The notes under the pieces: model-generated
What the model was told of the DNA's origin: nothing
Seen by the model: the letters and a program-made list of their open reading frames with translations, nothing else
The model's database searches: none
Part shown: in pieces, positions 1 to 19,514 of the stretch
How the letters are laid out: the number at the start of each line of letters is the position of its first letter
Position numbering within the stretch: the first letter of the stretch is position 1
Assembly: GCA_937880755.1 (NCBI GenBank)
Contig: CALGRX010000017.1
Span: 26,737 to 90,736, forward strand
DNA: 64,000 nucleotides
Source: an uncultured Clostridia bacterium
Lineage (GTDB): Bacteria; Bacillota; Clostridia; Christensenellales; UBA3700
Reading direction: 5' to 3'
Translations under genes and position numbers: made by a program

Positions 1-1
1 T

Positions 2-1681
2 AAGTTTATGGGGAATAAGTTTACTGAAAGTAACATTTGCAAGTGGATAGATAAGGTGGATGGCACCTTTGGTGTGGTAAAATACGATAAACGCACGAAG
101 TTCTTCGACGGTAAAATGGTGCAAAGTAGTTATCAATTTATCAACACTTTGGGTTTTAATGAAGAGCAAGTAGAAAAATTATTAAAGCCAAGCAAAGACT
201 ATTTAACTACGATTAGGGAAGATTACGATTTTATGCGCTATCATTATAGTAAAGCGTATAAAGGAGAAAAAGAAGAAGATAGAGAAGAAACGGCAGACGG
301 TTTAGAAGAAAGAAGTAAAGTTATTTTTGCTTTAATGAAAATCAATTACGATTTTAAGGATACTTTACTTTATTATAATTTTAGAGACAAGGTAGTTAAA
401 GCGCAAAAAGATAGATTAAAGCAAGGACATATTCTCTTGCCGGGAACAAATGCAACATTGTTTGGAAATGGACCTGAATTGTTATTAGCATTGTCGGGCG
501 AATTTGATTTACATAACAAGGATAATCAATCGGATATTTTGGATAAAGGCGAAATTGCTTGCAAAAAGTTTGAAAACGGCGAAAAGTTGGTTTGCGCGCG
601 TTCTCCACATATTACAATGGGTAATTTATATTGCGCAACAAATAATATATCAAATAGCATTTGGGATTATTTCGATTTGGGCGAGAATATCGTTTGCGTA
701 AATGCGATAGGCGAGAATATTCAACAACGCTTAAATGGTTGTGATTACGATTCGGACGCTATGCTTATCACGAACGATAAACTTATTGTAGAGACGGCGT
801 TTAATCAAAAAGACTTGTTCAAAGTTCCCGTATGTAGTATTGAGTCTGACGGCAAAAGAAAACCAATCCTTTCGGAATTAGATTATAATACGAGCGAAAA
901 CAAGATAGGCGAAATAGTAAATTTATCTCAAAAACTAAATAGTGTTTTATGGGACAAGTTAAGCCGTGGCTATGATTATGAAAGCATACAAGGTATTTAC
1001 GAAGACGTGTGTAAGCTTGCGGTACTTTCGGGTATTGAAATAGATAAGGCAAAGCGTGCATACGATAAGGTTAACGTCTCAAAAGAAATCAGTAAAATCA
1101 CGAAGAAACATAGTGTTGTTGCTCCTGAATTCTTCAGAGAGATAGATTTTGATTATGGCGTAAAAGAAAGACAATATGCTTTTTACAATACTCCTATGGA
1201 ATACGTTTATAAAAGCGTTCAAGATATTGATTATCGAAAAGGTAAAGAGAAAGAGATAGAATATATGCCTATTTCTAATATGTTAAAAGTGCCTGCGCCG
1301 AAATCCACGTCCACCGTTTATGAGCATAGAGATAAAGTGGTTGCTATTTGTAAAGAGTTTGAGAAGAAGTTAGACTATTTGTATAGCGAACTTAGGCGTG
1401 CTGACGATGACGAAAAGGAAGTTATTTACACAAGGATAAAACAAACGAAAGATGAGCGCAACGAACAAGTAAACGAACTGCTTTCCGAAGAATACATTTT
1501 ATATTTAGTATTGAAAGAGTATGAAAAAACTACGGGAGAGAATTGGCATCTTTACGCTCCGCTCCTTGAAAACGAACTCTTTAAGGGTATGTTAAAGATG
1601 AGCAAAGAAAAAATGCAAAAGGTTGCTCCAAAAGATGATGGCGAATACGATTTGTACGGCTTAAAATTTGCAAAAATCTAA
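2..1681 (+). CDS. YonO-like / RdRP-like double-psi-beta-barrel single-subunit RNA polymerase, C-terminal part (5' partial)
   Basis: The frame is open to the window edge. ARSPHITMGNLY...VCVNAIGENIQQRLNGCDYDSDAMLITND (DYDSD at 743-757) resembles the DxDxD metal loop and flanking strands of YonO / eukaryotic-type RdRP polymerases. Recognised from memory only. Confidence 0.5.
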   Translation, partial: KFMGNKFTESNICKWIDKVDGTFGVVKYDKRTKFFDGKMVQSSYQFINTLGFNEEQVEKLLKPSKDYLTTIREDYDFMRYHYSKAYKGEKEEDREETADGLEERSKVIFALMKINYDFKDTLLYYNFRDKVVKAQKDRLKQGHILLPGTNATLFGNGPELLLALSGEFDLHNKDNQSDILDKGEIACKKFENGEKLVCARSPHITMGNLYCATNNISNSIWDYFDLGENIVCVNAIGENIQQRLNGCDYDSDAMLITNDKLIVETAFNQKDLFKVPVCSIESDGKRKPILSELDYNTSENKIGEIVNLSQKLNSVLWDKLSRGYDYESIQGIYEDVCKLAVLSGIEIDKAKRAYDKVNVSKEISKITKKHSVVAPEFFREIDFDYGVKERQYAFYNTPMEYVYKSVQDIDYRKGKEKEIEYMPISNMLKVPAPKSTSTVYEHRDKVVAICKEFEKKLDYLYSELRRADDDEKEVIYTRIKQTKDERNEQVNELLSEEYILYLVLKEYEKTTGENWHLYAPLLENELFKGMLKMSKEKMQKVAPKDDGEYDLYGLKFAKI

Positions 1682-1751: not shown

Positions 1752-1838
1752 GAGTAGTTTTTGTTATGCTATCCCGATTGGACAAGGAGGTCGGGAAAGA
1801 TAATCTACAATATCTATTTTTTTACGGAGGAATTGCCG

Positions 1839-3125
1839 ATGGCAAAAATGGAACAGATTACAACGAAAACTAAAATTGCAGGCTACGAAAAAGAAGTGGC
1901 ACAGTTAGAACAATTAAAAGACTTTCTTCACAATGCGGAGAAATACGCAAATTGTGGGGTACATATTCCCAAAGGGGTACTGCTTTACGGATATCCCGGT
2001 GTGGGTAAAACGGTAATGGCAAAGTCCATTGCTGACGAACATATTAACATCGTTGAACTTCGCGCGGCAGATTGCACGAGAGATAATTCGGAAGAGTTTA
2101 TCCAAGAAGCATTTGCTAAAGCAAAAGAAATGAAACCGTGCCTTTTGCTTATTGATGAGTTTGATAAAATTGCAGGTTGTCGTGATGAATTTTATATGGA
2201 AATGAACGACAAAGCAATGAAAATTCTTCTTCAAGAACTTGATTCGCTTAAGGAAGAAAACGGAGTGTTGGTCGTTGCCACTTGTAATGATATTCGTCGT
2301 CTTGGTCCTGCGCTCGTTCGCTCGGGCAGATTTGATAGAATCTTCGAGATTGGCTTGCCATCACTTGAAGACAGAAAGAAAATCTTAAGCCTTTATTACG
2401 ATAAGATTACGATGGAAAAGAGTCTTGACGTGGATTACGTGGCGAGAGTAACTTCGGGATATTCAGGCGCACAACTTGAATGCCTTGTAAATGAATCGGG
2501 TATCCTTGCGATTGAAAGGGGGCAAGCGAGTATTGATTTTGATTGTTTCCAAACGGCGATGAATAGACTTGCTTTCCACGGTATAGAAGGGGAAATTAAG
2601 GACAACGAAAAGCATTTGGTTGCAGTTCACGAAGCGGGACACGCAATCGTTGCATTGTACTTAAAACCAGATAAATTATCGACGGCAACGATTATTCCGC
2701 AAGGTCAATCTAAAGGTCATACTCATATGATTTACGAAGAAGAAATCTATTGCTCAAAAAATAATGACGGTATAGACGATATCGCAATTGCTCTTGGCGG
2801 TAGAGTGGCTGAAATTATTGAATTTGGCGAAGCATCTTGTGGATGCTCAAACGATATGAGACAAGCTATAATGAGTCTTGATTTTATGATAACCGAAGGC
2901 GGTAAATTTGGATATGAGTATTTGCTTGATTTCTCTCGTCGTGGGGTTATTTCAGATTCGCAAGGCGAAAAAGTTATTGCAAAGCGAGTGGAAGTCTTAA
3001 ACGAAACGCACGAAAAAGTAAAGAATATCATTTTAGAACATAAAGGGGTATTCGATAAAATCGTGAGTGCATTAGAAACGAAACATCTTTTAAGTCGTGA
3101 CGAACTCTTAAAAATGGTAGCTTAA
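1839..3125 (+). CDS. Soluble FtsH-like AAA+ ATPase fused to an M41-type zinc metalloprotease (no transmembrane anchor)
   Basis: Walker A GYPGVGKT, Walker B LLLIDEFD, and the HEAGHA zinc site at 2628-2642. No hydrophobic N-terminus. ATG 1839 has GGAGG 8 nt upstream and is preferred over the track start 1761. Confidence 0.75.
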   Translation: MAKMEQITTKTKIAGYEKEVAQLEQLKDFLHNAEKYANCGVHIPKGVLLYGYPGVGKTVMAKSIADEHINIVELRAADCTRDNSEEFIQEAFAKAKEMKPCLLLIDEFDKIAGCRDEFYMEMNDKAMKILLQELDSLKEENGVLVVATCNDIRRLGPALVRSGRFDRIFEIGLPSLEDRKKILSLYYDKITMEKSLDVDYVARVTSGYSGAQLECLVNESGILAIERGQASIDFDCFQTAMNRLAFHGIEGEIKDNEKHLVAVHEAGHAIVALYLKPDKLSTATIIPQGQSKGHTHMIYEEEIYCSKNNDGIDDIAIALGGRVAEIIEFGEASCGCSNDMRQAIMSLDFMITEGGKFGYEYLLDFSRRGVISDSQGEKVIAKRVEVLNETHEKVKNIILEHKGVFDKIVSALETKHLLSRDELLKMVA

Positions 3126-3133
3126 ATTGAACA

Positions 3134-3170
3134 AGGGTGAGCTTGAACAAGGCTCGCCCTAATTATTTTA
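3134..3170 (+). terminator. Rho-independent terminator after the FtsH-like gene
   Basis: AGGGTGAGC / GCTCGCCCT stem (one G-U pair) followed by AATTATTTTATT. It overlaps the track start 3137, which argues for the 3206 start of the next gene. Confidence 0.6.
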
Positions 3171-3205
3171 TTAAAGTGGCACAGTTATTTTTCGGGAGGA
3201 TACAA

Positions 3206-3541
3206 ATGAAAAATTATATTTATTGTACAACCACTGCAAAAGGTGAACAAACCTTTTATTTAATGGCACAAGGAACAAAATTCTTTCTCTTTGTGCAAGC
3301 ATATAGAAGAAGTAATAAAGAAGTTTTTGAACAAGGAATTTCTTTATACGATTTAAGAAAACTAAAAAAGCAGTGTAGTTATAGCGTAAGGCATACGGCG
3401 GAGAAAATCCCTGCGCATATACGCTATATTGAACAAGAATATGGTATTTCCGTTATGGAAATGACCAAACGTAAGCAATCTAATTGGAAAAACAAGAAGA
3501 GATTTATAGTAAACAATTCTTTTGATTGGGAGGTTGCGTAA
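3206..3541 (+). CDS. Hypothetical 111-aa protein, translationally coupled to the ADP-ribosylglycohydrolase gene
   Basis: GGGAGG lies 6 nt upstream of ATG 3206. The stop TAA at 3539-3541 abuts ATG 3542. I recognise no family. Confidence 0.55.
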   Translation: MKNYIYCTTTAKGEQTFYLMAQGTKFFLFVQAYRRSNKEVFEQGISLYDLRKLKKQCSYSVRHTAEKIPAHIRYIEQEYGISVMEMTKRKQSNWKNKKRFIVNNSFDWEVA

Positions 3542-4375
3542 ATGATAGGAGCAATTATTGGAGATATCGTTGGTAGTAGATTTGAGTTTGTGGAAGATGG
3601 AAATCGTGGTAAGGATTTTGCGTTATTTGCAAGCGGATGTCGTTTTACGGACGATAGTTTAATGACGCTTGCCGTTACAAAATCATTACTGCTTAGTAAA
3701 GGGAATTACGATAATTTAGGAGAATTAACTACTCAAATAATGAAAGATATAGCTAAACCCTATCCGAGAATCGGATGGGGTGCTATGTTTTATAAATGGT
3801 TGTTTGAAAGAAGTGTTCCTTATAATAGTTATGGAAATGGGGCAGGTATGAGAATAAGCCCTGTTGGTTGGGTTGCTGAAACGGAAGAGGAAGTAAAAAT
3901 GCTTTCTAAAAAGGTGACGGAAATTTCGCATAATCATCCCGACGGAATAAAGGGCGCGGAAGCGATTGCTATGGCGGTATATCTTGCAAGAATCGGCAAA
4001 GATAAGGCTTATATTCGCGAAAGAATGAGTGAGTATTATCCAAAGTTGAAAGATAAATACTTTGCTATTAAATGGTTGATGGGGAATTACGGGTATGACG
4101 ATTGGGGCGCTTGGGTGACTTGTGAAGGGAGTATTCCACACGCTATTGTTGCGTTTTTAGACGGAGAAAACTTTGAAGACGTAATTCGTAATGCCGTTGG
4201 TATCGGTGGGGATTCTGATACAATCGGCGCGATGGCAGGAAGTATTGCCGAAGCGTATTATGGCGTTCCTATCGATTTGGAAGAAAAAGCATTAAGTTAT
4301 CTTCCTGAACACTTACAGGGATTGTGCCACGCTTTTAGGATGATAAAGAAGAAAAGAATACATATAAAGCAATAA
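3542..4375 (+). CDS. ADP-ribosylglycohydrolase family protein (DraG/ARH-like)
   Basis: The N-terminal MIGAIIGDIVGSRFEF and the segment GGDSDTIGAMAGSIAEAYYG are signature segments of the ARH family. Confidence 0.8.
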   Translation: MIGAIIGDIVGSRFEFVEDGNRGKDFALFASGCRFTDDSLMTLAVTKSLLLSKGNYDNLGELTTQIMKDIAKPYPRIGWGAMFYKWLFERSVPYNSYGNGAGMRISPVGWVAETEEEVKMLSKKVTEISHNHPDGIKGAEAIAMAVYLARIGKDKAYIRERMSEYYPKLKDKYFAIKWLMGNYGYDDWGAWVTCEGSIPHAIVAFLDGENFEDVIRNAVGIGGDSDTIGAMAGSIAEAYYGVPIDLEEKALSYLPEHLQGLCHAFRMIKKKRIHIKQ

Positions 4376-4441: not shown

Positions 4442-4494
4442 TTGCAAAATCTTTACTTTTGGGGTATAATATTACCATAAGAAGTAAAGATTTT
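4442..4494 (+). promoter_or_regulatory. Sigma-A-type promoter with a 13-bp perfect inverted repeat bracketing the -10 box (candidate operator for the HTH-Fic gene)
   Basis: TTGCAA (4442-4447), 17-nt spacer, TATAAT (4465-4470). The inverted repeat is AAAATCTTTACTT (4446-4458) / AAGTAAAGATTTT (4482-4494). A related half-site TCTTTACT sits at 4418-4425. Confidence 0.6.
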
Positions 4495-4511: not shown

Positions 4512-5414
4512 ATGATAATCAATGAAGTTAAATTAAAAGAATTGCTTAAAAAGAAAGGCATTACAAAGTCAGCTCTTTGCAATGAAATTGGTATTTCTTC
4601 AAGAACTATTGCTAAAATCGGCAAAGGTGAAAATATTAACGATAAGGTTGCACAAAAGATAGCCGAGTTTTTAGGCGTAGAAAATATCGACTTGGTGGAA
4701 GACAACGGTATACTTAAAACCTTACAAGCAGAAAAGAAGTTAAAGGTTAGCGGTGGGCTTTATCACGAAACGCAAATTAAGTTAACGTATAATTCTAACC
4801 ACATAGAGGGAAGTAAATTAACGGAAGAACAAACCCGTTATATTTTCGAAACTAAAACGGTTGGCGAGTTGCCGTCTAACGTTCAAATAGATGACATTAT
4901 TGAAACGAATAATCACTTTAGGTGTATTGACTACGTTATAGATAATGCTATAGATGAGCTATCCGAAGATTTTATTTTAACTTTGCAAAAAATCTTAAAA
5001 GAAGGCACGGAGCACGCTAAAACTTACGGGGCAGGCAAGTATAAATCTTTACCGAACGTAGTAGGTGGTATAGAAACTGCAAAGCCTGCCGACGTTGCTT
5101 CCGAGATGAAGAAGCTTATCGCCTGGTATAATTCAATTAAAAAAGTTGCTTTTGAAGATATAGTTGAATTCCATTATCGTTTTGAGACGATTCACCCGTT
5201 CCAAGACGGAAATGGTAGAATTGGTCGTCTTATAGCATTTAAACAATGTTTAAAGAATAACTTTATTCCATTTTATATAGATGATGCAAACAAGTGGCTT
5301 TATTATCGTGGGCTTCGTGAATGGAAGAGCGAAAAGAACTATTTAATTGAAACATGCCGTTTTGGTCAAGACCAATATAAAATGTTATTAGATTATTTTG
5401 GTATAAAATACTAA
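4512..5414 (+). CDS. Fic-domain protein (AMPylase-type) with an N-terminal XRE-type HTH
   Basis: Exact Fic motif HPFQDGNGRIGR at 5193-5228. The N-terminal segment ELLKKKGITKSALCNEIGISSRTIAKIGKG is an HTH. Confidence 0.85.
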   Translation: MIINEVKLKELLKKKGITKSALCNEIGISSRTIAKIGKGENINDKVAQKIAEFLGVENIDLVEDNGILKTLQAEKKLKVSGGLYHETQIKLTYNSNHIEGSKLTEEQTRYIFETKTVGELPSNVQIDDIIETNNHFRCIDYVIDNAIDELSEDFILTLQKILKEGTEHAKTYGAGKYKSLPNVVGGIETAKPADVASEMKKLIAWYNSIKKVAFEDIVEFHYRFETIHPFQDGNGRIGRLIAFKQCLKNNFIPFYIDDANKWLYYRGLREWKSEKNYLIETCRFGQDQYKMLLDYFGIKY

Positions 5415-5427
5415 AGAGGGCTGAATT

Positions 5428-6339
5428 ATGTTTAAGCATTTAAGAGAAATTGATTATAAGTTATATGAACGTTATTTAACGTTGGAGAAAAATATCAAGG
5501 CAGATAGTAATTCGTTTTACGATGCTTACCTTGATTTGCAAGAGCAATTTGTAAAAGACGTTGCTGTTTTTTGTGAGTTTGATATTAAAGCAAGAGAAAC
5601 TTGTGGAGAACTTTTAAGAAGAGAAGATATAAAAAACTTCTTTAAAGATGTGCTTCGTGTGGATGATTTTACTTATACCAAAATGCAGGATTATACTTTA
5701 AAGGTTAATGCTCATAAACACAAAGGCGAGAAGAATATTCAAATAGATACGATAGTTAGCTATATGAGAATTATTTATGATGCAACAGTTTCTTTTGCTG
5801 TTTACAAACAAATTTCAGTAAAAGAGTTTGATGCTAACTATTTTATTTCGATTTTTTGTTCTTTTGAACGTGAGAATTCTGTATTAAAAACAGAGATGAT
5901 GAAACTAAAAGAAGAACTCTTGGTTTCTGTGGAAAGTGGAAGGCTGAAGGATAGCGATATCGCGGAATATAAAAGTCTACTTTCGCAGTCAGAAATAGAT
6001 AAATTAAGCTTAGAAGAACAAAACCAAGAATTACATAGACAGATTAGTAAACTAAAAGACATTAAACTTTCATCAATGGAAGAGAAGTTAAACAAAACAA
6101 TAGATTTACTACACGAATTAAGTGATAGCGTTGTAGAAAATAGGGCTGTTGCTTATGCTGCAGGTGATGCTATTTGCGGGAAGGAAAGATTCCAAAAATA
6201 CGTAGATGGAGCAAAGGAGTTATGGAAAAAGGCAAAAGCCGGCGTAGACAAGGTTAATGAAACGCTTGGGATAGGTGTTGCTGTAACTAAAGGGATAAAT
6301 GAGATAACTAAGTTATTTACGGGTGAAGAAGATGAATAG
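5428..6339 (+). CDS. Hypothetical protein: N-terminal helical domain plus C-terminal coiled coil
   Basis: Starts 13 nt after the Fic stop. It contains a KVNAHKH segment reminiscent of the N..aH motif of DUF4145/Abi-type helical domains. Residues 150-230 show heptad-like E/K/L-rich sequence. Confidence 0.5.
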   Translation: MFKHLREIDYKLYERYLTLEKNIKADSNSFYDAYLDLQEQFVKDVAVFCEFDIKARETCGELLRREDIKNFFKDVLRVDDFTYTKMQDYTLKVNAHKHKGEKNIQIDTIVSYMRIIYDATVSFAVYKQISVKEFDANYFISIFCSFERENSVLKTEMMKLKEELLVSVESGRLKDSDIAEYKSLLSQSEIDKLSLEEQNQELHRQISKLKDIKLSSMEEKLNKTIDLLHELSDSVVENRAVAYAAGDAICGKERFQKYVDGAKELWKKAKAGVDKVNETLGIGVAVTKGINEITKLFTGEEDE

Positions 6340-7120
6340 TTCAGATAATTTATACGATAGAGTGGACGGGGTAGAGTCTAAAGTAGATGATGTTTCGGCA
6401 AAAATGGATAGTCTTACGGCAAAAATTGATGGGCTATTAACGATAAAACAAACGACAACAACGACTCCTCAAACCGAAAATCCACAAGTTGTATTAAAGC
6501 GATTTATTTCAAAAGCAAAAAAAGAATATTGTTGGCTAGGTTCAGAAACTGATTTTCAAAAGGAAAAGAAAACGGCCCTAATACTTCTTGCCGCTTTAAT
6601 TGGGACAATTGTCCTTTCAATGATTTTTACGAGCATCGCTTTTGGGTTATATAGCACGTTTACGTTATTTGAAAATATTTGGCTTATTATGATGTGTTTT
6701 ATGGCTTTTTACTTGGTAAAAGCTAAGCGTTTTTATGATTGCTATGAATTTTCATTGACGAGTTGCTTTAAGTTTGAACCTGATGCGGACGGAGTGCTAC
6801 GCATGGGTGCTCCTAATAAAAAATACAAAGTATTTTTAGTCTTAACTTGTATATCTGCAATTTGCAATATTATAGTTGTTTGGATGGAAAATAAAAATGG
6901 GATGGCATTACCCGCTACGATTTTTGAATTAGCGGTTTTGGGGTTAAGTATATTTGTATTTAATTTTAAGGCATTAGATTTTTTCTATGGGTATTCGAAT
7001 TTGCGTTTTACGGGTGCAAATGAAACAACAGGGCAAAAGGTTGTTTTGATTTATGAACCGATAATGAATAAACTTTATACTGAAGAAGATTATTTAAAGC
7101 AATTTCCGTTTTGCAAATAA
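6323..7120 (+). CDS. Hypothetical membrane protein (coiled-coil N-terminus, about 4-5 TM helices)
   Basis: Overlaps the previous gene by 17 nt. Hydrophobic stretches include LILLAALIGTIVLSMIFTSIAFGLY, IWLIMMCFMAFYLV, VFLVLTCISAICNIIVVW and LAVLGLSIFVF. Confidence 0.55.
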   Translation: MKKMNSSDNLYDRVDGVESKVDDVSAKMDSLTAKIDGLLTIKQTTTTTPQTENPQVVLKRFISKAKKEYCWLGSETDFQKEKKTALILLAALIGTIVLSMIFTSIAFGLYSTFTLFENIWLIMMCFMAFYLVKAKRFYDCYEFSLTSCFKFEPDADGVLRMGAPNKKYKVFLVLTCISAICNIIVVWMENKNGMALPATIFELAVLGLSIFVFNFKALDFFYGYSNLRFTGANETTGQKVVLIYEPIMNKLYTEEDYLKQFPFCK

Positions 7121-7134
7121 AAAACGTTCTTCCC

Positions 7135-7356
7135 TTATACAGAGAAGAACGCCAAAAAGTCTATATCAAAAATTTTTGAAAGTTCTTGCAAGATACGAAT
7201 ATCGTAGATACCTTTGTTTACCCATCTTCCGATAGTGCGAACGTCAGTGCCGAATTCAAAAGCGAATTCTTCTTGCGTTTTATACTTTGAGTTTTTGATA
7301 AGACGTTTGAGATTTGCCCCAGCAACTAAGCCAGGGTCTTTGATATTTTGTTCCAT
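7135..7356 (-). CDS. XRE-family HTH transcriptional regulator
   Basis: LKRLIKNSKYKTQEEFAFEFGTDVRTIGRWVNK is a typical Cro/CI HTH. GGAGG SD upstream. It is divergent from the Abi gene. Confidence 0.7.
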   Translation of the reverse strand: MEQNIKDPGLVAGANLKRLIKNSKYKTQEEFAFEFGTDVRTIGRWVNKGIYDIRILQELSKIFDIDFLAFFSV

Positions 7357-7466
7357 AATATCTACCTCCTTTGCTTATCAAAAACGAAATGCTCCAGAGA
7401 TTTATATTAAGAACAAGTATATTATACAATAAAAACACAAAAATTACAATCGGTTTTGAGGTTTAT

Positions 7467-8210
7467 ATGAGTAAAGAGTGGTTGAAAAAAATTAAAATGA
7501 CATTAGAAGAAAGAGAAAATCTTCAAATGTGGTGTGAAAATATCGGGTATGAAAGATATGAAAAGATTTATGATTTAGTAGCATGTGTAAAACAAAATGA
7601 TTGCGTAAACTATGAAGAATTAAGAGCAATTGCAAAGTATGATTTTTCGCTTTCCGATATATTGCATTCGATGATGAAATTGGTCGAATTGCGTTTTCGT
7701 TCCTATTTAATCAATCGATATGGACCTATTAAATTAACTAAGACCGGTTATATACACGAAATAACGAGAGAACTTGGTAAAAATGAAAAAATGTTGGATT
7801 GTTCTACTTACTACGATAATAAATTAAAACCAACTACGACATTGAAAAATTTTCTTGAAGTTTCAGGTTTGGAAACGATGTTTAAGGTATTGCTAGTTTT
7901 AAGCGATGAGGAATTAAAAGCTTTTGAGCGAGATTCAAATACATTTAGAGACAATTTAACTATCATAAGGACAATGCGTAACAAAATCTCGCACGGACAA
8001 TATCTATTGGGTGAAAAGACTGAGTTAAAACAGGCTTTTATGTTGTTGTTAAAATATATGCCGACAAAGGAAACAAAGAATAGAAGAATAAACGAATTAG
8101 AAGACCTGAATAAGCGCCTTTTCTGTATAGAAAGTAATATACAAAAAGAATTAATGGAAGAGATACAAATAACATTAAACGACGACGAGCTTGAAGAAAT
8201 AGGATTATAG
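7467..8210 (+). CDS. Abi_2 (AbiD/AbiF-like) abortive-infection family protein
   Basis: YDFSLSDILHSMMKLVELRFRSYL and IIRTMRNKISHGQYL match the conserved Abi_2 blocks. ATG 7467 is preferred over the track start 7371. Confidence 0.65.
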   Translation: MSKEWLKKIKMTLEERENLQMWCENIGYERYEKIYDLVACVKQNDCVNYEELRAIAKYDFSLSDILHSMMKLVELRFRSYLINRYGPIKLTKTGYIHEITRELGKNEKMLDCSTYYDNKLKPTTTLKNFLEVSGLETMFKVLLVLSDEELKAFERDSNTFRDNLTIIRTMRNKISHGQYLLGEKTELKQAFMLLLKYMPTKETKNRRINELEDLNKRLFCIESNIQKELMEEIQITLNDDELEEIGL

Positions 8211-8286
8211 GACAAAACTTGTCCTGTTAAAAAGTTTTCGTTTCTTGTACAATGTAGTCAAGAAAAACGCAAGGAGCGAAAACAAA

Positions 8287-8718
8287 ATGGAAAAATACTT
8301 TTCAGTAAAAACAAAATGTGGACATGTTGGTAAATATCATTGTGTATGGATTAACTTTGCAATCTATGCAGAAACGGCAAAAGAGGCCGCAAGTAAAGTA
8401 AGAGAGATTGGTCGTGTAAAACGTCACCATAAAGATTTTATTAGCAGTATTGAAAAACTTGACTTTGATACATTTATGAAATTAAAAGCACAAAATGATG
8501 CAGATCCATATTTGCATTGTAAGAGTGTTCAAGAGCAGCGCGCCATAGAAGGTTTTGAAGAAAGAATCGAGCTTGATGAATATAACATTGCAAGATTTTC
8601 AAAAAAGACGACTAAGAAAGAATCGTTAGAGTTTAGGGTGAAGAGAGCGAACGCCAAAGAAAAAAGTCATAAACGAGCTTTGAAAGAATATTTTTACGAG
8701 GAGGCGATAGCATGGTAG
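8287..8718 (+). CDS. Hypothetical protein (first gene of the nucleotide-metabolism operon)
   Basis: AAGGAG SD before ATG 8287. Overlaps the nrdG start. I recognise no family. Confidence 0.5.
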   Translation: MEKYFSVKTKCGHVGKYHCVWINFAIYAETAKEAASKVREIGRVKRHHKDFISSIEKLDFDTFMKLKAQNDADPYLHCKSVQEQRAIEGFEERIELDEYNIARFSKKTTKKESLEFRVKRANAKEKSHKRALKEYFYEEAIAW

Positions 8719-9146
8719 TATATATCAATTCAATAAAATTTAATCGCAGTCTTGTAGATGGCCCGGGCGTAAGAACAGTTGTATTCTTTCAAGGATGTGA
8801 TTTGCATTGTAAAGGTTGTCAAAATCCTTCTACTTGGGAAATGAAAAACGGAACGGAAATGACAACAGACGAACTTGTGACAATTCTAAAAAAAGAAGTT
8901 ATTAACAAAAAGGTTACTTTCTCAGGTGGAGAACCTTTGATGCAAGTAAATGCACTTATTGATGTAGTAAAAAAACTTGAAGGGTTTGATATTGCTGTGT
9001 ATACAGGACATGCGTTTGAAGAAGTTCCGCAAGAACTTTTAGATAATATTACTTATATTAAAACGGGTTCTTTTAAGGAAGAATTTAAGTCTACGGTAAA
9101 ACCATACGTCGGTTCTACAAATCAAGAATTTAGGAGGGTGAAATAA
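8712..9146 (+). CDS. nrdG: Anaerobic ribonucleotide reductase activating protein (radical SAM)
   Basis: GPGVRTVVFFQGCDLHCKGCQNP contains the CxxxCxxC cluster motif. Small size, and it lies immediately upstream of nrdD. Confidence 0.85.
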   Translation: MVVYINSIKFNRSLVDGPGVRTVVFFQGCDLHCKGCQNPSTWEMKNGTEMTTDELVTILKKEVINKKVTFSGGEPLMQVNALIDVVKKLEGFDIAVYTGHAFEEVPQELLDNITYIKTGSFKEEFKSTVKPYVGSTNQEFRRVK

Positions 9147-10837
9147 TGCAAAAATGTAATGAAAATGCAGCTAATCGCTATAGTTACGTTGGCGAAGTTT
9201 ATAACGTTGGCGAAAGCAAAAGAAAAGAAGAAATACTAAATAGCCTTCCTAGTGAGTGGAGCGACCTTCATAAAAAAGGTTATATTCATATACACGACCT
9301 TGACGCTTACGGACTTACTTATAATTGCCTTACCTTTAATTTATTGAAAGATTTTCCGTATGAAAGATTTAAGGACATGAGCGAGCAAAGAAAAATCCTT
9401 GCTACGTTTGAATATATTAAGAAACTGTTTGCTGATATCGGCAACGAACAGTCGGGCGGTATGGCAATCGCTAACTTTGATAACGAAATTGCTTATATTT
9501 TAGAAAATTTAGGCGTTGATTTTAACGAAGATAATAAAAACACGATTGCAAACGTTATTTACAATCTAATCGTTTGGTGTAGCGAAACGCATACCCGTAT
9601 GGGACAAACTTCTTATTACGTTTCTCTTAATATCGGTCTTGCTAAAAATGAATTTGCACGCTTTATAGCATTTACGCTTATTGATGAGTTTGAAAAAGCA
9701 GGGGATTTAATCTTTAAACCAAACATTATTTTCAAAGTTAGAGGTGGGATAAATCGTTTTGAAGAAGATAAAAACTACGATTTGCTTAAAAAATCACTGC
9801 TATGTACGGCTAAAAAGATGATACCTACTTACGTTCTTTGCGACAGCGAGCCGAATAAAAACGTTGATGCCGAAAAGCTTGCCATTATGGGTTGTAGAAC
9901 GAGAGTTGTAGCAGATTTATTTGGCGAAAATTCTTCTATTGGCCGTGGAAATATTGACAACATTTCAATCAATCTTCCTAGACTTGCTTTAGAAGTAGAT
10001 AGAGATTTTGGTAAACTTTCCGTTGATGAGAAAATCGCAAAATTCATTGATAAATGGGATAGCGTTGCCAAAATTACTAAGGATATTTTGATTGATAGAT
10101 TTAATAAGGTGTGCGCTCGTACTTCAGAAGAATTTCCTATCAATAAAAAACATCATCTTTGGATAGAAGATTTTGATGACGTTAAGAACGTTTTCCGCCA
10201 CGGAACGTTATCTCTTGGATTTATAGGTCTTTCTGAAGCGTTTGAAGTGTTGACGGGCGAAAGATATTATAACAATGCGGACGTATACGTTTCAGCGCTT
10301 GGCTTTGTTAAGCATATGCGTGATTATTGTGAGTTTTTAAGAAAAGAGTATAACCTTAATTTCTCACTTTTGGCAACGAGTGGTGAACTTATATCGGGTA
10401 GATTCATTGATATGGATAGAACGGAATTTACGCCGTCTCCTCAAATCTTTAAAAAAGAGTTTTATACAAATTCTTTCCATATTAACGTTGATAGTGATTT
10501 ATCAGCATTTAGGAAAATTCAGTTAGAAGGTCTTTTCCACGAAGTTTGCAACGGTGGCTGTATTACCTACGTTGAACTTGGCGAAGCTCCACTTGGAAAC
10601 GACGAAGGCTTACTTGAATACGTTGAACATGCTATTAAATCAGGTGTTCACTATCTTGGGTTTAATTTCCCTAAGGACGTTTGTAACGGGTGTGGCGCAA
10701 GCGGAGTTTTTGACGAATGCCCCGTTTGTAAAAGTAAAGATATTACGAGAATTCGTCGAGTTAGTGGTTATTTAGAAATTTTAGACGGATTTACCAAAGG
10801 CAAAAAGAACGAAGAAAGAAATAGGAGAGCAAACTAA
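9146..10837 (+). CDS. nrdD: Anaerobic ribonucleoside-triphosphate reductase (class III)
   Basis: C-terminal glycyl-radical motif RIRRVSGYL preceded by the zinc ribbon CNGCG...CPVCKS. TAATG coupling with nrdG. Confidence 0.85.
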   Translation: MQKCNENAANRYSYVGEVYNVGESKRKEEILNSLPSEWSDLHKKGYIHIHDLDAYGLTYNCLTFNLLKDFPYERFKDMSEQRKILATFEYIKKLFADIGNEQSGGMAIANFDNEIAYILENLGVDFNEDNKNTIANVIYNLIVWCSETHTRMGQTSYYVSLNIGLAKNEFARFIAFTLIDEFEKAGDLIFKPNIIFKVRGGINRFEEDKNYDLLKKSLLCTAKKMIPTYVLCDSEPNKNVDAEKLAIMGCRTRVVADLFGENSSIGRGNIDNISINLPRLALEVDRDFGKLSVDEKIAKFIDKWDSVAKITKDILIDRFNKVCARTSEEFPINKKHHLWIEDFDDVKNVFRHGTLSLGFIGLSEAFEVLTGERYYNNADVYVSALGFVKHMRDYCEFLRKEYNLNFSLLATSGELISGRFIDMDRTEFTPSPQIFKKEFYTNSFHINVDSDLSAFRKIQLEGLFHEVCNGGCITYVELGEAPLGNDEGLLEYVEHAIKSGVHYLGFNFPKDVCNGCGASGVFDECPVCKSKDITRIRRVSGYLEILDGFTKGKKNEERNRRAN

Positions 10838-14811: not shown

Positions 14812-15990
14812 ATGAAGTATTGTTTTTTTGATATAGAGTGCGCAAATTGCTTTAAGGACAATAATGGTGTTTCTCGTGGTAAGATTTGCGAGTTTGGATA
14901 TTTAATTACGGATGAGAATTTTAATAAAATTGAATCTGCTGAATATATAATTAATCCCAAGGCACCTTTTGATGAATACGTGTTGAACAATATGTTGGCG
15001 TATCCTAAACAAGTATATTTATCAGCGCAAGATTATAACACTTTCTATGATAAGATTAAACGTATATTTGAGCTTGATGAGATAATATTTATTGGACATA
15101 CGATAGATGCTGACGCTAAATATTTAAATGACGAGGCGTTACGATATAAAAAACCTTATTTTAATTATAAGTTTTATGATGCAAAGTATATGTATTCCGA
15201 TTATTCAAACATCAAAAAAAGTGTTGGTTTGGAAAAAATAAGTCAGACATTTGGAAATAAAACACGTCATCATGAACATCGTGCAGAAGATGATGCTTTT
15301 ACAACAATGCTTATAGTAAAAGAGATGTGCGAAAAATTAGATATGGATTTAATGTCACTTATAGAGCTTTCTGAAGATTGTGCAGGACAAACGATAGATG
15401 GTAAAATTACAACCGTAGCGAGAGAAAAAGCACAAGCTAGAAGGGAAGAATGTGAAAGAAACGGAACAGACCATTCTAATAGTTTATATAGCGATAATTA
15501 CATTAAATTTATGCAGTTCTTAGATGGTGTAAAAAGACAAGGAGAAATTATCCCTAGTGTGTTAAATGGAAAAAGTTTGACTATTACACTTAATTATCAA
15601 AACGTGCATTATAAAGAAATGCTTGCGCTTATTCAATTGTTGAAAAATCACGATTGCATATACAAATTAAAAGCTTCGGAATGCGATTATATGGTAACCA
15701 AAGTTGTTCTAAACGACGACGGAAGTGAAAGAACATGTTCAAAATTGAAATATGTAAATCAAGCGATAGAAAATGGTAAGAAAATTAATATAATAACGTT
15801 TGAAGAGCTGTTAGAGATATTAAAAGTGACGGACAAAGAATTAACTCAGATGCCATTCCCGGATGAGAGCTGTTTTCTTAAAAAGAGGAAAGAGAACAAT
15901 CTAAAAAAAGAAAAAATAAGGTATTCAAGTGTAGAAGATTCTACTACGACGATAGGAGATATCTTAAAAGCAAAAGGAATAACAATTTAA
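14812..15990 (+). CDS. DEDDh 3'-5' exonuclease (DnaQ-like) with a BRCT-like C-terminal domain
   Basis: ExoI FFDIECAN, ExoII IGHTIDADAKYL, ExoIII HRAEDDA. The C-terminal GKSLTITL...MVTKVV resembles a BRCT domain. Confidence 0.7.
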   Translation: MKYCFFDIECANCFKDNNGVSRGKICEFGYLITDENFNKIESAEYIINPKAPFDEYVLNNMLAYPKQVYLSAQDYNTFYDKIKRIFELDEIIFIGHTIDADAKYLNDEALRYKKPYFNYKFYDAKYMYSDYSNIKKSVGLEKISQTFGNKTRHHEHRAEDDAFTTMLIVKEMCEKLDMDLMSLIELSEDCAGQTIDGKITTVAREKAQARREECERNGTDHSNSLYSDNYIKFMQFLDGVKRQGEIIPSVLNGKSLTITLNYQNVHYKEMLALIQLLKNHDCIYKLKASECDYMVTKVVLNDDGSERTCSKLKYVNQAIENGKKINIITFEELLEILKVTDKELTQMPFPDESCFLKKRKENNLKKEKIRYSSVEDSTTTIGDILKAKGITI

Positions 15991-16100: not shown

Positions 16101-16132
16101 GCCCACTATACTTCGAGAATCGAAGTGTGGGC
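16101..16132 (+). other. Candidate oriT (imperfect inverted repeat next to a GTGTG motif upstream of the relaxase)
   Basis: GCCCAC-TAT-ACTTCGA GAA TCGAAGT-GTGGGC. MobV-family oriTs are inverted repeats adjacent to a GTGTG-type nick region. Assigned from position and shape only. Confidence 0.4.
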
Positions 16133-16180
16133 TCTGCGAGGCTAAATAAAGACTATAAAATAACAAGGAGGAAAACGAAA

Positions 16181-17209
16181 ATATCATATTTAGTATGCCA
16201 TATGGAGAAATACCATAAACAAGAAGTTTCGCCCGTTGAAGAAGAAAACGAACGCGACGAAACCTTTGAAGCGGACAATCCGCAAATAGATAGCGAAAGA
16301 ACGAAAAACAATTATCATATGAACTCTAACGCCTTTGGTGGTTATACTGAGTTCATTAACAAACGGTTAAAAGAATTAGGGCTTAAACCACGAAAAGATG
16401 CTGTTGTTATGAACTCTTTCGTGGTAGGCTCGGATAAGGCGTTTTTAGATAGTTTGCCTAAAATGCAACAATACAGTTTCTTTTCAGATTGCGCCAAGTT
16501 CTTTGAGAAGAGATATGGGGAAGAAAACGTAATATCGGCGGTTGTGCATTTAGACGAAACGACTCCGCATATGCACTTAAATCTTATTCCAATCACTCCA
16601 GATAGAAGACTTTGTAGCAAGGACTTATTTGATAAGCCGAAACTACAACAACTTCAAACGGACTTTTACGAAGCAGTCGGAAAGAAATACGGGCTGCAAC
16701 GTGGCAAAGAAGGAAGCCAAGCAAAACATCTATCAACAGCCGAATACAAAGCGAAAAAGATTATAGAAGAAGCGGAAGAAATTCGACGTGAAAATCAGGT
16801 GTATGCCGATGCTTTGGAAGAAGCCAAAAACAGAGCGATATCCAAAAAGCGTGGGAAACTGCAAGAACAAGTTGTAGCGTTAACGGTTGCCAATAAAGAC
16901 TTAACCGAGCGCCTTGACCGTTCTATGCAAGATACGCTTGATGTGGTAAAGGAAAACGGTAAACTCAAAGCGGAGAAAGATAAAGATGTCAAATACGCTC
17001 AAGTTGGTAAATACATAGCAAGCAATGCACCTAATTTATGTAGAAGTATATTAAATGGGGCAAGTGCTGTTAAGGTATTCTTTTCTGCAGTAGAAGATTT
17101 ATGTAAACCAAGTGTTACGTCGCAAGTTCCCCGACTTCAAGAAATAGAAGCGGAGATTGAAGAAGAACGTGTAAAACACGAACGTAAAAATAGAAATTAT
17201 AAATATTAG
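16181..17209 (+). CDS. MobV-family (Mob_Pre) plasmid mobilisation relaxase
   Basis: HLDETTPHMHLNLIPIT is the HxDE..PHxH relaxase motif. The conserved N-terminus SYLVCHMEK begins at ATA 16181, 9 nt after AGGAGG. Alternative starts are ATG 16202 and GTG 16127. Confidence 0.8.
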   Translation: MSYLVCHMEKYHKQEVSPVEEENERDETFEADNPQIDSERTKNNYHMNSNAFGGYTEFINKRLKELGLKPRKDAVVMNSFVVGSDKAFLDSLPKMQQYSFFSDCAKFFEKRYGEENVISAVVHLDETTPHMHLNLIPITPDRRLCSKDLFDKPKLQQLQTDFYEAVGKKYGLQRGKEGSQAKHLSTAEYKAKKIIEEAEEIRRENQVYADALEEAKNRAISKKRGKLQEQVVALTVANKDLTERLDRSMQDTLDVVKENGKLKAEKDKDVKYAQVGKYIASNAPNLCRSILNGASAVKVFFSAVEDLCKPSVTSQVPRLQEIEAEIEEERVKHERKNRNYKY

Positions 17210-17261
17210 GAGGTTATATATGAATAGGCAAAACAAATTTCTCGTAAAGGTATAAAACAGC

Positions 17262-17290
17262 TTGACTATCTCGTGATAGCACGGTATAAT
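17262..17290 (+). promoter_or_regulatory. Consensus-like sigma-A promoter for the small ORF / recombinase unit
   Basis: TTGACT, 17-nt spacer, TATAAT. The spacer contains the palindrome CTATCTCGTGATAG. Confidence 0.6.
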
Positions 17291-17321
17291 AGAGGCAAGA
17301 AAAACTTTTAGGAGTGAAAAA

Positions 17322-17540
17322 ATGGAAAAACAATTAACGCCAAAACAAAAGGCAAGACAAAAGTATGAAATCATACATAAGGAAGAGCGTGAAAAAGCAA
17401 CGAAGCAATTTAACACGAGGCTTCCCGTCAAAGAATATGACGAAATTACAGCGTTTCTTAAAAAGAAAAGAATTCCAAAGGTGGATTTGATTAGAATGGG
17501 ATATCAAAGACTTTTGGAAGAGTTTAAGGAAAGCAAATAA
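17322..17540 (+). CDS. Small basic hypothetical protein (72 aa) between relaxase and recombinase
   Basis: AGGAG SD before ATG 17322. Lys/Glu-rich and helical in character. I recognise no family. Confidence 0.5.
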   Translation: MEKQLTPKQKARQKYEIIHKEEREKATKQFNTRLPVKEYDEITAFLKKKRIPKVDLIRMGYQRLLEEFKESK

Positions 17541-17831
17541 CAGCGGAACGCATTATGCGCTTAACACACCCGTAATGGTCGGGAATTGATAAGGAGAAAA
17601 TATTGTAAGGGGAATCCGTATTTATCTTTCCGTTAAAAGTGCGGATAACAAACCCTAAAAATAAAAAATGATAAGGAGAATTGGAGCAACAAAATAATGT
17701 AAACAAAAAAGAAAATACAAAAAGGGAAAATGATGAAAATTTTAACGCGTTTATCAAAGTATTGGCGCGTTTAGTACAAAAATATGGTCCAACGGTGTTG
17801 GAAGAAATAAAAAAGGAAGAGGAGGGACAAT

Positions 17832-19514
17832 ATGAATAGAGAAGGTAAAAAGTGTTTATTGTATTCTCGTGTAAGTACGGAAATGCAGGTTGACGGTTAT
17901 AGCCTTGAAGCGCAAAAGAACTGCTTAAAAAGATTTGCCGAAAGAGAAGAGATGATGGTGGTAGATGCTTATGAAGATGCAGGAAAGTCGGGTAAATCTA
18001 TTGAAGGTCGTCCTGCTTTTAAAAGAATGCTTTCCGATATAGAAAACGGTAAAAATGTTGATTACGTTCTCGTTTATAAACTTTCTCGATTTGGAAGAAA
18101 TGCGGCAGATATATTGAATTCGTTGGCGTTATTGCAAACTTACGACGTGAATTTGATATGTATTGAAGAAGGAATTGACTCGTCTCAAACGAGCGGCAAA
18201 TTGCTTATTTCGGTACTGTCTGCCGTTGCAGAAATAGAAAGAGAAAATATATTAGAGCAAACTATGAATGGACGTAGAGAAAAGGCTCGCCAAGGTAAAT
18301 GGAATGGCGGGCCTGCTCCATACGGATATACGATTAACGATGGCGTTTTGCAGATTGATGAAGAAGAAGCAAAAATCGTTAGAACGATTTATGAAATGTA
18401 TGTAAACACGAAAATCGGATATACGGGAATAGCTAAATATCTCAATTTGCAAGGCATAACAAAGAGACCAAGAAAGGAAAGTGATGCTAAAGTTTTTAGC
18501 GGGCATTTTATACAAATTTTATTAGATAATCCCGTGTATTGCGGAAAGATAGCGTACGGAAGAAGAAAACACGAGCGTATTAAAGGAAGGAAAAATGAAT
18601 ATCACGTGGTACATCAAAAAGAGTTTTCGCTTACCGATGGGTTGCACGAAGGTATCGTAAGTAAAGAACTTTGGAAAAAGGCAAGGGATAAAAGAGTGGC
18701 AACAGGAATTAAATTAGCATCAAAAATAGGTAAAGACCGCACGTATTTACTTACGGGAATATTAAAATGTCCTAAATGCGGTAGTCCTATGTATGCCAAT
18801 AGAATAAGATGGACTAAAAAGGATGGTACGGAAAAGGAAGTAATGTATTATTCTTGTAGCCGAAATAAAATGAAGCGAGGGGGCTTTTGTGATTATAGCG
18901 CTAATCTAAAGAAAACGGATATCGAACCGCTTGTTATAGGCGTTATAAAACAAATTATAAACGACGAAAGATTTGTTGAAGGTGTAAAAAGTAGTATTGG
19001 TATTCACGTTGATGAGGATAAGATTGTGGAAGAAATTAAAAATTATGAAGCAAAACTGAAAGAAGTTCAACTGAATAAAAATCGACTTGAAACGGAACTT
19101 GACACCTTGCCGATAGATGCTAAATATAGAGATAGAAAAATAAAAGATATGACGACGAGAATTGATTATATGTACGATGTAATCGCGGAGATAGAAGAAA
19201 AGATTGATGACGCACGTTATAGAAAACACGCGATTGAAGAAAAATCACTAACATTTGAAAACATATATCGAATTTTAGAGCATTTTTCTAAAATATATGA
19301 TATAATAAATGATGAAGATAGAAAAGAATTGCTCGCGGAGTTAATCAAAGAGATACATATTTATCCCGAAGGGGAAAACGAGTACCCGTTGAAGTCAATA
19401 AAATTCGCTTTTCCTATACTGTTAGACGGAAAAGAAGTAGATGAAATTTTTTTGAACAAGCCGTCGAGTGTCGAGACTTTAGTCTGTTTAACCCGTGTAA
19501 ACCACAATATATAG
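17832..19514 (+). CDS. Large serine recombinase (integrase)
   Basis: N-terminal resolvase catalytic block LLYSRVSTEMQ...YSLEAQ, a recombinase domain, the zinc ribbon CPKCGSPM...YYSC, and a long coiled coil. Confidence 0.9.
   Translation: MNREGKKCLLYSRVSTEMQVDGYSLEAQKNCLKRFAEREEMMVVDAYEDAGKSGKSIEGRPAFKRMLSDIENGKNVDYVLVYKLSRFGRNAADILNSLALLQTYDVNLICIEEGIDSSQTSGKLLISVLSAVAEIERENILEQTMNGRREKARQGKWNGGPAPYGYTINDGVLQIDEEEAKIVRTIYEMYVNTKIGYTGIAKYLNLQGITKRPRKESDAKVFSGHFIQILLDNPVYCGKIAYGRRKHERIKGRKNEYHVVHQKEFSLTDGLHEGIVSKELWKKARDKRVATGIKLASKIGKDRTYLLTGILKCPKCGSPMYANRIRWTKKDGTEKEVMYYSCSRNKMKRGGFCDYSANLKKTDIEPLVIGVIKQIINDERFVEGVKSSIGIHVDEDKIVEEIKNYEAKLKEVQLNKNRLETELDTLPIDAKYRDRKIKDMTTRIDYMYDVIAEIEEKIDDARYRKHAIEEKSLTFENIYRILEHFSKIYDIINDEDRKELLAELIKEIHIYPEGENEYPLKSIKFAFPILLDGKEVDEIFLNKPSSVETLVCLTRVNHNI

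Follow-up and report, generated by a model that had tools for sequence, protein, structure and literature searches.

The subject of this report is a pair of abutting genes in a 64,000-nucleotide stretch of DNA, referred to here as the window, which is part of contig C17 of the genome of an uncultured Clostridia bacterium (1.5 Mb in 23 contigs, 96% complete). The first gene, at positions 3206 to 3541 of the plus strand, is referred to as the small gene and encodes a 111-amino-acid (aa) protein that we assign, from its homologues, AlphaFold2 (AF2) models, and gene contexts, to an unnamed small-leader family. The second, at positions 3542 to 4375 of the plus strand, encodes a 277-aa ADP-ribosylglycohydrolase (ARH) of the ARH/DraG superfamily, assigned by its PF03747 match and by motif alignment. 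As read from the sequence, the small gene opens with an ATG at 3206 and runs for 111 codons to a TAA at 3539 to 3541, and the ATG of the ARH gene directly adjoins this stop. A GGGAGG Shine-Dalgarno sequence ends 6 nt 5' of the small-gene start, and a second GGGAGG, within the final small-gene codons, lies 8 nt 5' of the ARH start.

A first-pass annotation of this DNA had pointed to the TAA-ATG abutment at 3539 to 3544, which is indeed present, and had described the pair as bounded by a terminator upstream and a next promoter at 4442. A consensus scan recovered both of these features: a plus-strand terminator-like hairpin at 3134 to 3160, between the preceding protease gene and the small gene, and a plus-strand promoter-like site (TTGCAA-17-TATAAT) at 4442 to 4470, belonging to the helix-turn-helix (HTH)-Fic gene that follows. 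Related loci have a hairpin at the corresponding position. The pair is probably transcribed as one unit. Stop-start abutment is common in operons and is unremarkable alone; the TAAATG junction of this pair is kept in six related loci. At locus L013 (8334 to 8395), a spacer of about 60 nt replaces the junction and holds a hairpin followed by a T-run, which suggests that the two genes may be uncoupled there; L046, a locus of the same sub-lineage, likewise has some 60 nt of spacer in place of TAAATG.

The small gene and its family

Judged by its homologues, the 111-codon open reading frame is a real gene, because related proteins form 86 clusters (55 to 95% identity, nearly all of about 111 aa) and a profile that includes distant members gathered 374 clusters from a library of 50%-identity representatives. 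Within the best 150 of these 374 clusters, every small protein stands alone (74 to 162 aa, with 0 fusions), and by the same homology the window's protein is a member of a large, unnamed family of stand-alone proteins with at least 374 clusters. It had no match in Pfam, PHROGs, or NCBIfam, and its profile found nothing below E = 0.5 among PDB sequences; a match to PADLOC PDC-S63 reached only 15 bits (E = 0.004) and was treated as noise.

Sequence conservation is concentrated in a few positions. The only invariant columns of a 16-sequence alignment are C7, Y18, L28, Q31, K67, and P69, and a 61-sequence alignment has 0 invariant columns. When distant homologues are included, the conserved positions are C7, Y18, L28, F29, Q31, T64, K67, P69, Y74, E76, and E78, and R34, S58, and S60 are variable. 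Relatives of the locus are found in uncultured Clostridia and Christensenellales metagenome-assembled genomes (MAGs) from gut samples. The small genes of two related MAGs carry an in-frame TGA (L009:6228-6230, codon 79; L012:8217-8219, codon 73), which could reflect decay, assembly error, or, less likely, recoding; the ARH gene behind the L012 small gene is full of stops and has decayed.

The small gene heads arrays of varying content

We surveyed about 100 loci of the family, labeling genes with profiles built from the loci themselves and testing representatives with Pfam and PADLOC. This approach may overlook genes of weak similarity, and the loci do not represent phylogenetically independent cases. 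With few exceptions, the small gene opens a same-strand array, and what follows it varies by locus. In about 30 loci it is followed by a stand-alone CARF protein (PADLOC CARF2, 2e-78), a 291-aa protein with weak matches to sigma-70 region 3 and HTH domains, often a vWA-PP2C-kinase set, and a UPF1-like superfamily 1 (SF1) helicase (MkoA, 4e-78); arrays of this type are exemplified by L028:6331-12309 and L057:8001-15639 and occur in about 30 further loci. The same arrangement with an inserted DEDDh exonuclease and GreA-N-like protein, often with an HTH-Fic gene just upstream, is seen in 5 loci, and in 3 loci the array consists of the small gene and an SF1 helicase.

ADP-ribosylation genes appear in several other arrangements. 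Four loci combine the small gene with genes for an AraC-type HTH protein, DarT, and a macrodomain protein; in these loci (L105, L109, L112 [5995 to 9148], and L113) the DarTG-like pair lies behind the small gene and the 321-aa AraC-type HTH protein, all co-directional. The window's own clade, of about 20 loci, has the order polymerase, FtsH-like protease, small gene, ARH. Four single loci also contain ARH: L077 (small gene, FtsH-like, ARH, DEDDh, polymerase), L059 (small gene, 203-aa protein, DEDDh, CARF, 291-aa protein, ARH, FtsH-like, 169-aa protein, helicase), L022 (small gene, 138-aa protein, ARH, 154-aa protein, macrodomain protein), and L089 (ARH, small gene, CARF). ARH is thus found in five gene arrangements of the family, and macrodomain or DarT-macrodomain genes are found in three. 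The polymerase occurs with FtsH-like or AAA genes in other orders, and without ARH, in L001, L020, L021, L023, L027, L030, and L034; in these seven loci, in L077, and in the window's clade, which represent several independent arrangements, an AAA or FtsH-like gene adjoins the small gene.

At L005:8859-9905, L030:4784-5362, and L096, genes adjoining small-family genes specify proteins with the C-terminal domain of the RNA polymerase alpha subunit. Together with the GreA-N-like and sigma-like neighbors, they point to transcription as a theme of the loci in which this family occurs.

Predicted structure and C-terminal tail of the small protein

The AF2 model of the full-length small protein has a pLDDT of 78, with a core (residues 1 to 88) at about 90, and a model trimmed to residues 1 to 89 reached a pLDDT of 90 and a pTM of 0.80. 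In both models the predicted core consists of three strands followed by four helices, and residues 90 to 111 are predicted to be disordered (pLDDT below 50). Three Foldseek searches, two against PDB and one against BFVD, gave best E values of 0.17 and 0.30 (PDB) and 0.08 (BFVD), none of them significant and none to an ADP-ribosyltransferase (ART). Many of these weak matches were to RNase H-like or actin-like ATPase folds, with which the model has only a strand meander and one helix in common, and they were not built on.

The first-pass annotation had proposed, as one possibility, that the small protein is a miniature ART toxin and ARH its antidote. This copy does have the residues to which it pointed as an R-S-E signature (R34/R35, S58-Y-S60, and E76-Q-E78), the two genes do abut stop to start, and ARH or macrodomain genes recur in some family loci. 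Searches of the genome for DarT and DraT gave no match, with control genomes equally silent. The reading of these residues as an ART signature fails because fold, conservation, and size all disagree with it: the predicted three strands and helices contain no ART-type sheet and retrieved no ART, R34, S58, and S60 vary among homologues, and a protein of 111 aa, 88 of them folded, is far below the size of any known ART. Moreover, neither ARH nor a macrodomain gene lies near most family members, and the small gene and ARH diverge discordantly within the window's clade (see below), so the two are not conserved together as a toxin and its antidote. We regard an ART toxin at this locus as extremely improbable, and the original toxin-antidote idea does not merit follow-up effort.

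The disordered tail of the small protein is basic (Lys/Arg rich) and ends in ...DWEVA in the window's copy. Across 145 family representatives, the C-terminal residue is Ala in 80 (55%, against a background Ala frequency of 5.7%), mostly as VA, AA, IA, or CA after a Lys/Arg-rich disordered stretch. Tails of this kind resemble the C-terminal tags that are read by ClpX and FtsH, for example, the ssrA tag and the MuA tail. The terminal Ala and the repeated adjacency of AAA or FtsH-like genes suggest regulated proteolysis of the small protein.

Conserved elements upstream of the small gene

Immediately upstream of the small gene, on the plus strand at 3176 to 3183, lies the element GTGGCACA, about 30 nt 5' of the start codon and kept across loci. 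We counted such motifs in 79 nonredundant upstream regions and compared the counts with those in shuffled sequences. GTGGCACA occurs 29 to 35 nt 5' of the ATG in 14 of the 79 loci (shuffle, 0.06), which are those of the window's clade together with L020 and L023; the small proteins of the latter two are only 45% identical to that of the window, yet they share the element. GTTAAG, mostly 57 to 76 nt 5' of the ATG, was found in 35/79 loci (shuffle mean, 3.9), and the longer pattern GTTAAS-N14-20-TATRWA, 60 to 76 nt 5' of the ATG, was found in 17/79 (shuffle, 0.17). Loci with the polymerase gene directly 5' of the small gene have in common GAGTAGTT followed by a short hairpin. A sigma-54 promoter at TGGCAC was considered and rejected, as the -12 GC element is absent.

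Upstream of small genes that head CARF/helicase arrays, the promoter-like element TGTTAAGT-N16-17-CTATATA is conserved (for example, at L057:7940-8000). It is found at the same position in L019, L053, L058 to L061, L067 to L072, and L079 to L092; its -35-like part is unusual, and L057, L059, L061, L067, and L068 have tandem double copies. The neighboring 291-aa protein, with its weak sigma-70 region 3 and HTH matches, might be what reads this element.

The ARH gene and its association with the small gene

The assignment of the second gene to the ARH/DraG family by the first-pass annotation is borne out by a PF03747 score of 121 bits against a cut-off of 26.2, with residues 1 to 242 covered. 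The 277-aa protein also matched phrog_6572 (E = 1e-48) and the sequences of solved structures, namely, MJ1187 (1e-14), ARH3 (4e-13), DraG (4e-7), and the Thermus thermophilus ARH. Its motifs GDIVGSRFEF, FTDDS, and GGDSDT align with their counterparts in ARH3 and MJ1187; in ARH3, these supply the N-terminal catalytic Glu and the metal-binding T-D-D and D-x-D-T residues, respectively. By these motifs the gene looks catalytically intact. Its scores are far under the NCBIfam equivalog cut-offs for DraG (55.5 against 337) and Tri1 (32.8 against 490).

ARH is the single PF03747 match in the host genome. A Pfam scan of the neighboring genes found no transferase partner adjacent to it, and a local tblastn search of the host genome with DarT sequences from related loci was negative. 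Searches of the host genome for the DarT and DraT families also gave no match, but these are weak negatives because control genomes were equally silent. The enzyme most likely removes ADP-ribose that foreign transferases have put on macromolecules of the cell or of the element.

Outside the window's clade, ARH comes after the small gene in just a few arrangements, and most family loci are without it. Within the clade, pairwise identities of the small protein correlate at r = 0.94 with those of the polymerase, at r = 0.91 with those of the protease, and less closely with those of ARH (r = 0.74), and the correlation between polymerase and ARH is r = 0.44. In L008, identity is 95% for the small protein and 74% for ARH, whereas in L004 it is 68% and 88%, respectively; these discordant identities suggest exchange of the ARH module. 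ARH is a recurrent but minority, swappable component behind the small gene.

A possible regulatory role for the small protein

We tentatively read the small protein as a proteolytically labile leader regulator of the genes behind it, with ARH as swappable cargo. Our confidence in this reading is less than even because it draws on gene position, cis-acting motifs, and the tail and not on a recognized fold. The folded core would bind a partner, which might be one of the promoter-proximal DNA motifs upstream or a protein of the module, and the basic disordered tail, with its nonpolar and usually Ala end, would mark the protein for AAA+ proteolysis. The likely protease at this locus would be the soluble FtsH-like enzyme whose gene lies just 5' of the small gene. 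Under stress or invasion, the level of the small protein would shift and so would the output of the module that it controls, which in this element would be the orphan ARH. We infer the regulatory role, the proteolytic control, and the substrate of ARH alike.

Several points weigh against this interpretation. The argument for a regulatory role comes from gene position, and the profile search of PDB sequences and the Foldseek searches recognized neither a DNA-binding fold nor any other known fold in the small protein. Its best-conserved residues include two Glu, one Cys, and several Tyr, which is atypical for a DNA-binding surface. The consensus scan of the window found no sigma-70-type site between 3160 and 3206, and the upstream motifs could be a simple shared promoter read by another factor. 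The terminal Ala might have a function unrelated to degradation. Finally, the in-frame TGA in two MAGs suggests that the small gene can be lost.

The degron-like tail and the leading position of the gene, as in many toxin-antitoxin operons, are also consistent with a labile antitoxin-like neutralizer, which would bind a downstream effector and free it upon its own degradation, and the neighbors of the family do include toxic or abortive modules (DarT, helicase systems, and Fic). The downstream partners are, however, too varied for a single binding specificity, the DarT loci already have their own macrodomain antidote, and the next gene in the window encodes a hydrolase rather than a toxin. We consider a neutralizer distinctly unlikely.

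Neighboring genes and the polymerase

The pair is preceded by a gene for a soluble FtsH-like protease (1761 to 3125, plus strand; 454 aa), in which Pfam matches identify AAA+ (PF00004, 4e-31) and M41 (PF01434, 1e-26) domains; it has an HEAGH site and no membrane anchor, and its true start is probably near codon 27. We call it FtsH-like and not FtsH proper because its TIGR01241 score of 280 bits falls short of the 600-bit cut-off and because the match, which begins at profile position 155, lacks the membrane part. A canonical FtsH paralogue, 30% identical to it, is encoded on contig C21 of the host genome.

Upstream of the protease gene, and separated from it by a plus-strand terminator-like hairpin (1716 to 1742, consensus scan), is a gene for an 862-aa protein, the 3' two thirds of which lie within the window (1 to 1681, plus strand; the full gene is G000:C17:25829-28414, corresponding to L007:11093-13681). 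The motifs RSPH and DYDSD are invariant in 18 homologues of this protein, and in hhalign its profile aligned with YonO of SPbeta over 513 columns with both motifs in register (E = 6.4e-5, probability 64%). It also matches phrog_8308 and a gene annotated RdRP in phage PMBT24. By these motif and profile matches it appears to be a remotely similar homologue of the YonO-like two-barrel polymerases.

This neighbor raises the possibility that the small protein serves the YonO-like polymerase as a dedicated subunit or as a specificity factor, in concert with the FtsH-like protease, and that ARH is unrelated cargo. The divergence of the small protein in the window's clade tracks that of the polymerase and the protease above that of ARH (r = 0.94 and 0.91, against 0.74), the three genes co-occur in several arrangements, and promoter recognition by YonO is still an open question (PMC5467207). 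On the other hand, most family members are in loci without the polymerase, and a phage record with a distant small-protein homologue has no polymerase match. A survey of 301 genomes of the order to which the host belongs gave a clear small gene in 5 and the polymerase in 12, each with a scattered distribution over families. In 6 of these 12 (L116 to L121), neither a small gene nor an FtsH-like gene nor ARH lies less than 7 kb from the polymerase; the lone polymerases are 54 to 60% identical in five genomes and 38% in one. An obligate system of small protein and polymerase was rejected on account of these six genomes, and we consider a role as polymerase factor unlikely.

The HTH-Fic gene (4512 to 5414, plus strand; Fic and HTH domains, PADLOC PDC-S04 at 1e-100) is the next gene after ARH in the window, and an HTH-Fic gene also immediately precedes the small gene in more than 10 helicase-type loci (between L054 and L102). 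The DEDDh exonuclease of the element (14812 to 15990) is 34 to 40% identical to exonucleases encoded beside small, FtsH-like, and polymerase genes in L001 and L057, and it may belong to the same functional set though it is 11 kb away.

The locus is part of a mobilizable element

The first 19.5 kb of the window contain, in order, the 3' part of the gene for the 862-aa protein, the FtsH-like protease gene, the small gene, ARH, HTH-Fic, Abi_2, NrdG/NrdD with nucleotide-metabolism genes, a leucine-rich repeat (LRR)-methylase pair, and genes for an Smr protein, the DEDDh exonuclease, a Mob_Pre relaxase, and a large serine recombinase. The last two, identified by Pfam matches, form a mobility module at 16127 to 19514 of the plus strand (relaxase, 16127 to 17209; recombinase, 17832 to 19514). 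Going by this gene content, the locus is an integrative mobilizable element in a Clostridia MAG and not a phage. The first-pass annotation had spoken of a phage-borne ARH, which does not agree with the 1.5-Mb bacterial genome or with the relaxase and recombinase. A phage origin was also considered separately and rejected: the host genome is bacterial, and NrdD was the one gene to match when the first 12 kb were compared with phage genomes by megablast.

That the element, with its relaxase and recombinase, carries an orphan ARH suggests that ARH alone could be a counterdefense of the element against ADP-ribosylation in the recipient, its place behind the small gene being a matter of operon packaging and not of a functional link. 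The sequence history of ARH, discordant with that of its neighbors and suggestive of module swapping, fits this proposal, and phage orphan NADAR enzymes that neutralize DarT1 offer a precedent (bioRxiv 10.1101/2024.07.11.602962). Against it, ARH is found in four further small-gene arrangements (L022, L059, L077, and L089), which argues against pure coincidence, and its scores are far below the DraG and Tri1 cut-offs of NCBIfam. We consider the proposal somewhat unlikely; it is compatible with the small protein being a labile leader regulator.

A broader form of the labile-leader interpretation can also be put forward, though we think it very doubtful. The small protein might represent a new, widespread class of leader switch for RNA- and transcription-centered defense in Firmicutes, made unstable by an ssrA-like tail and coupling infection stress to module expression. 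Here, with the FtsH-like protease, it would control a transcription-rescue set, in which the YonO-like enzyme would be a spare polymerase and ARH would strip ADP-ribose attached by phage transferases from the host transcription machinery.

Significance and comparison with known systems

The unnamed family of the small protein is clearly marked by its genomic contexts and has a confidently predicted fold without a match among solved structures. It heads arrays with DarT-macrodomain pairs, sets of CARF and UPF1-like helicase genes, and YonO-like polymerases, and it is a concrete target for defense genetics. YonO-like polymerases are known in firmicute chromosomes, where their role is unexplained, and the link of one of them to a soluble FtsH-like protease gives a new handle on such polymerases.

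Of the ADP-ribosylation systems, DraT/DraG and Tre1/Tri1 include hydrolases of the superfamily to which the window's 277-aa protein belongs, and that protein keeps the TDD and D-x-D-T motifs. The window differs from them in that no transferase was found adjacent to ARH or elsewhere in the host genome, where the control genomes were silent as well, and in that no ART fold is seen for the small protein. Repressors under protease control are known from ImmR/ImmA of ICEBs1 and CapH/CapP of CBASS, in which the repressors are HTH proteins and the proteases are of the ImmA type. The likeness to these systems is a small leading gene beside a metalloprotease gene, ahead of defense or mobile-element genes, with the same proposed logic of a proteolytic switch; here, in contrast, no DNA-binding fold was recognized in the small protein, the protease belongs to the AAA+ FtsH-like enzymes, and its role is predicted.

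YonO of Bacillus phage SPbeta is a single-chain two-barrel RNA polymerase (PMC5467207, PMC2919709). The 862-aa neighbor aligns with it across the R-x-P and DxDxD catalytic motifs, but it is only remotely similar (hhalign probability, 64%) and is encoded on a mobilizable element and not in a prophage; a link of YonO to an FtsH-like protease and a small protein is not mentioned in these two reports. CoCoNuT systems of types II and III, in the part of the published account drawn on here (PMC10542128), have as accessory parts the UPF1-like helicase CnuH, the TerY-P triad, and CARF. With comparison confined to such accessory parts, the commonest small-family loci hold the same kinds (a stand-alone CARF protein, a vWA-PP2C-kinase triad, and an SF1 helicase), whereas the window's own locus has none of them; the same part of that account makes no mention of a small leader protein. 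Lastly, the phage orphan NADAR enzyme AdfN neutralizes DarT1 and has a proven DNA substrate (bioRxiv 10.1101/2024.07.11.602962). It differs from the window's enzyme in belonging to the NADAR and not the ARH superfamily, and it resembles it as an enzyme that removes ADP-ribose and is carried by a mobile element without a transferase of its own.

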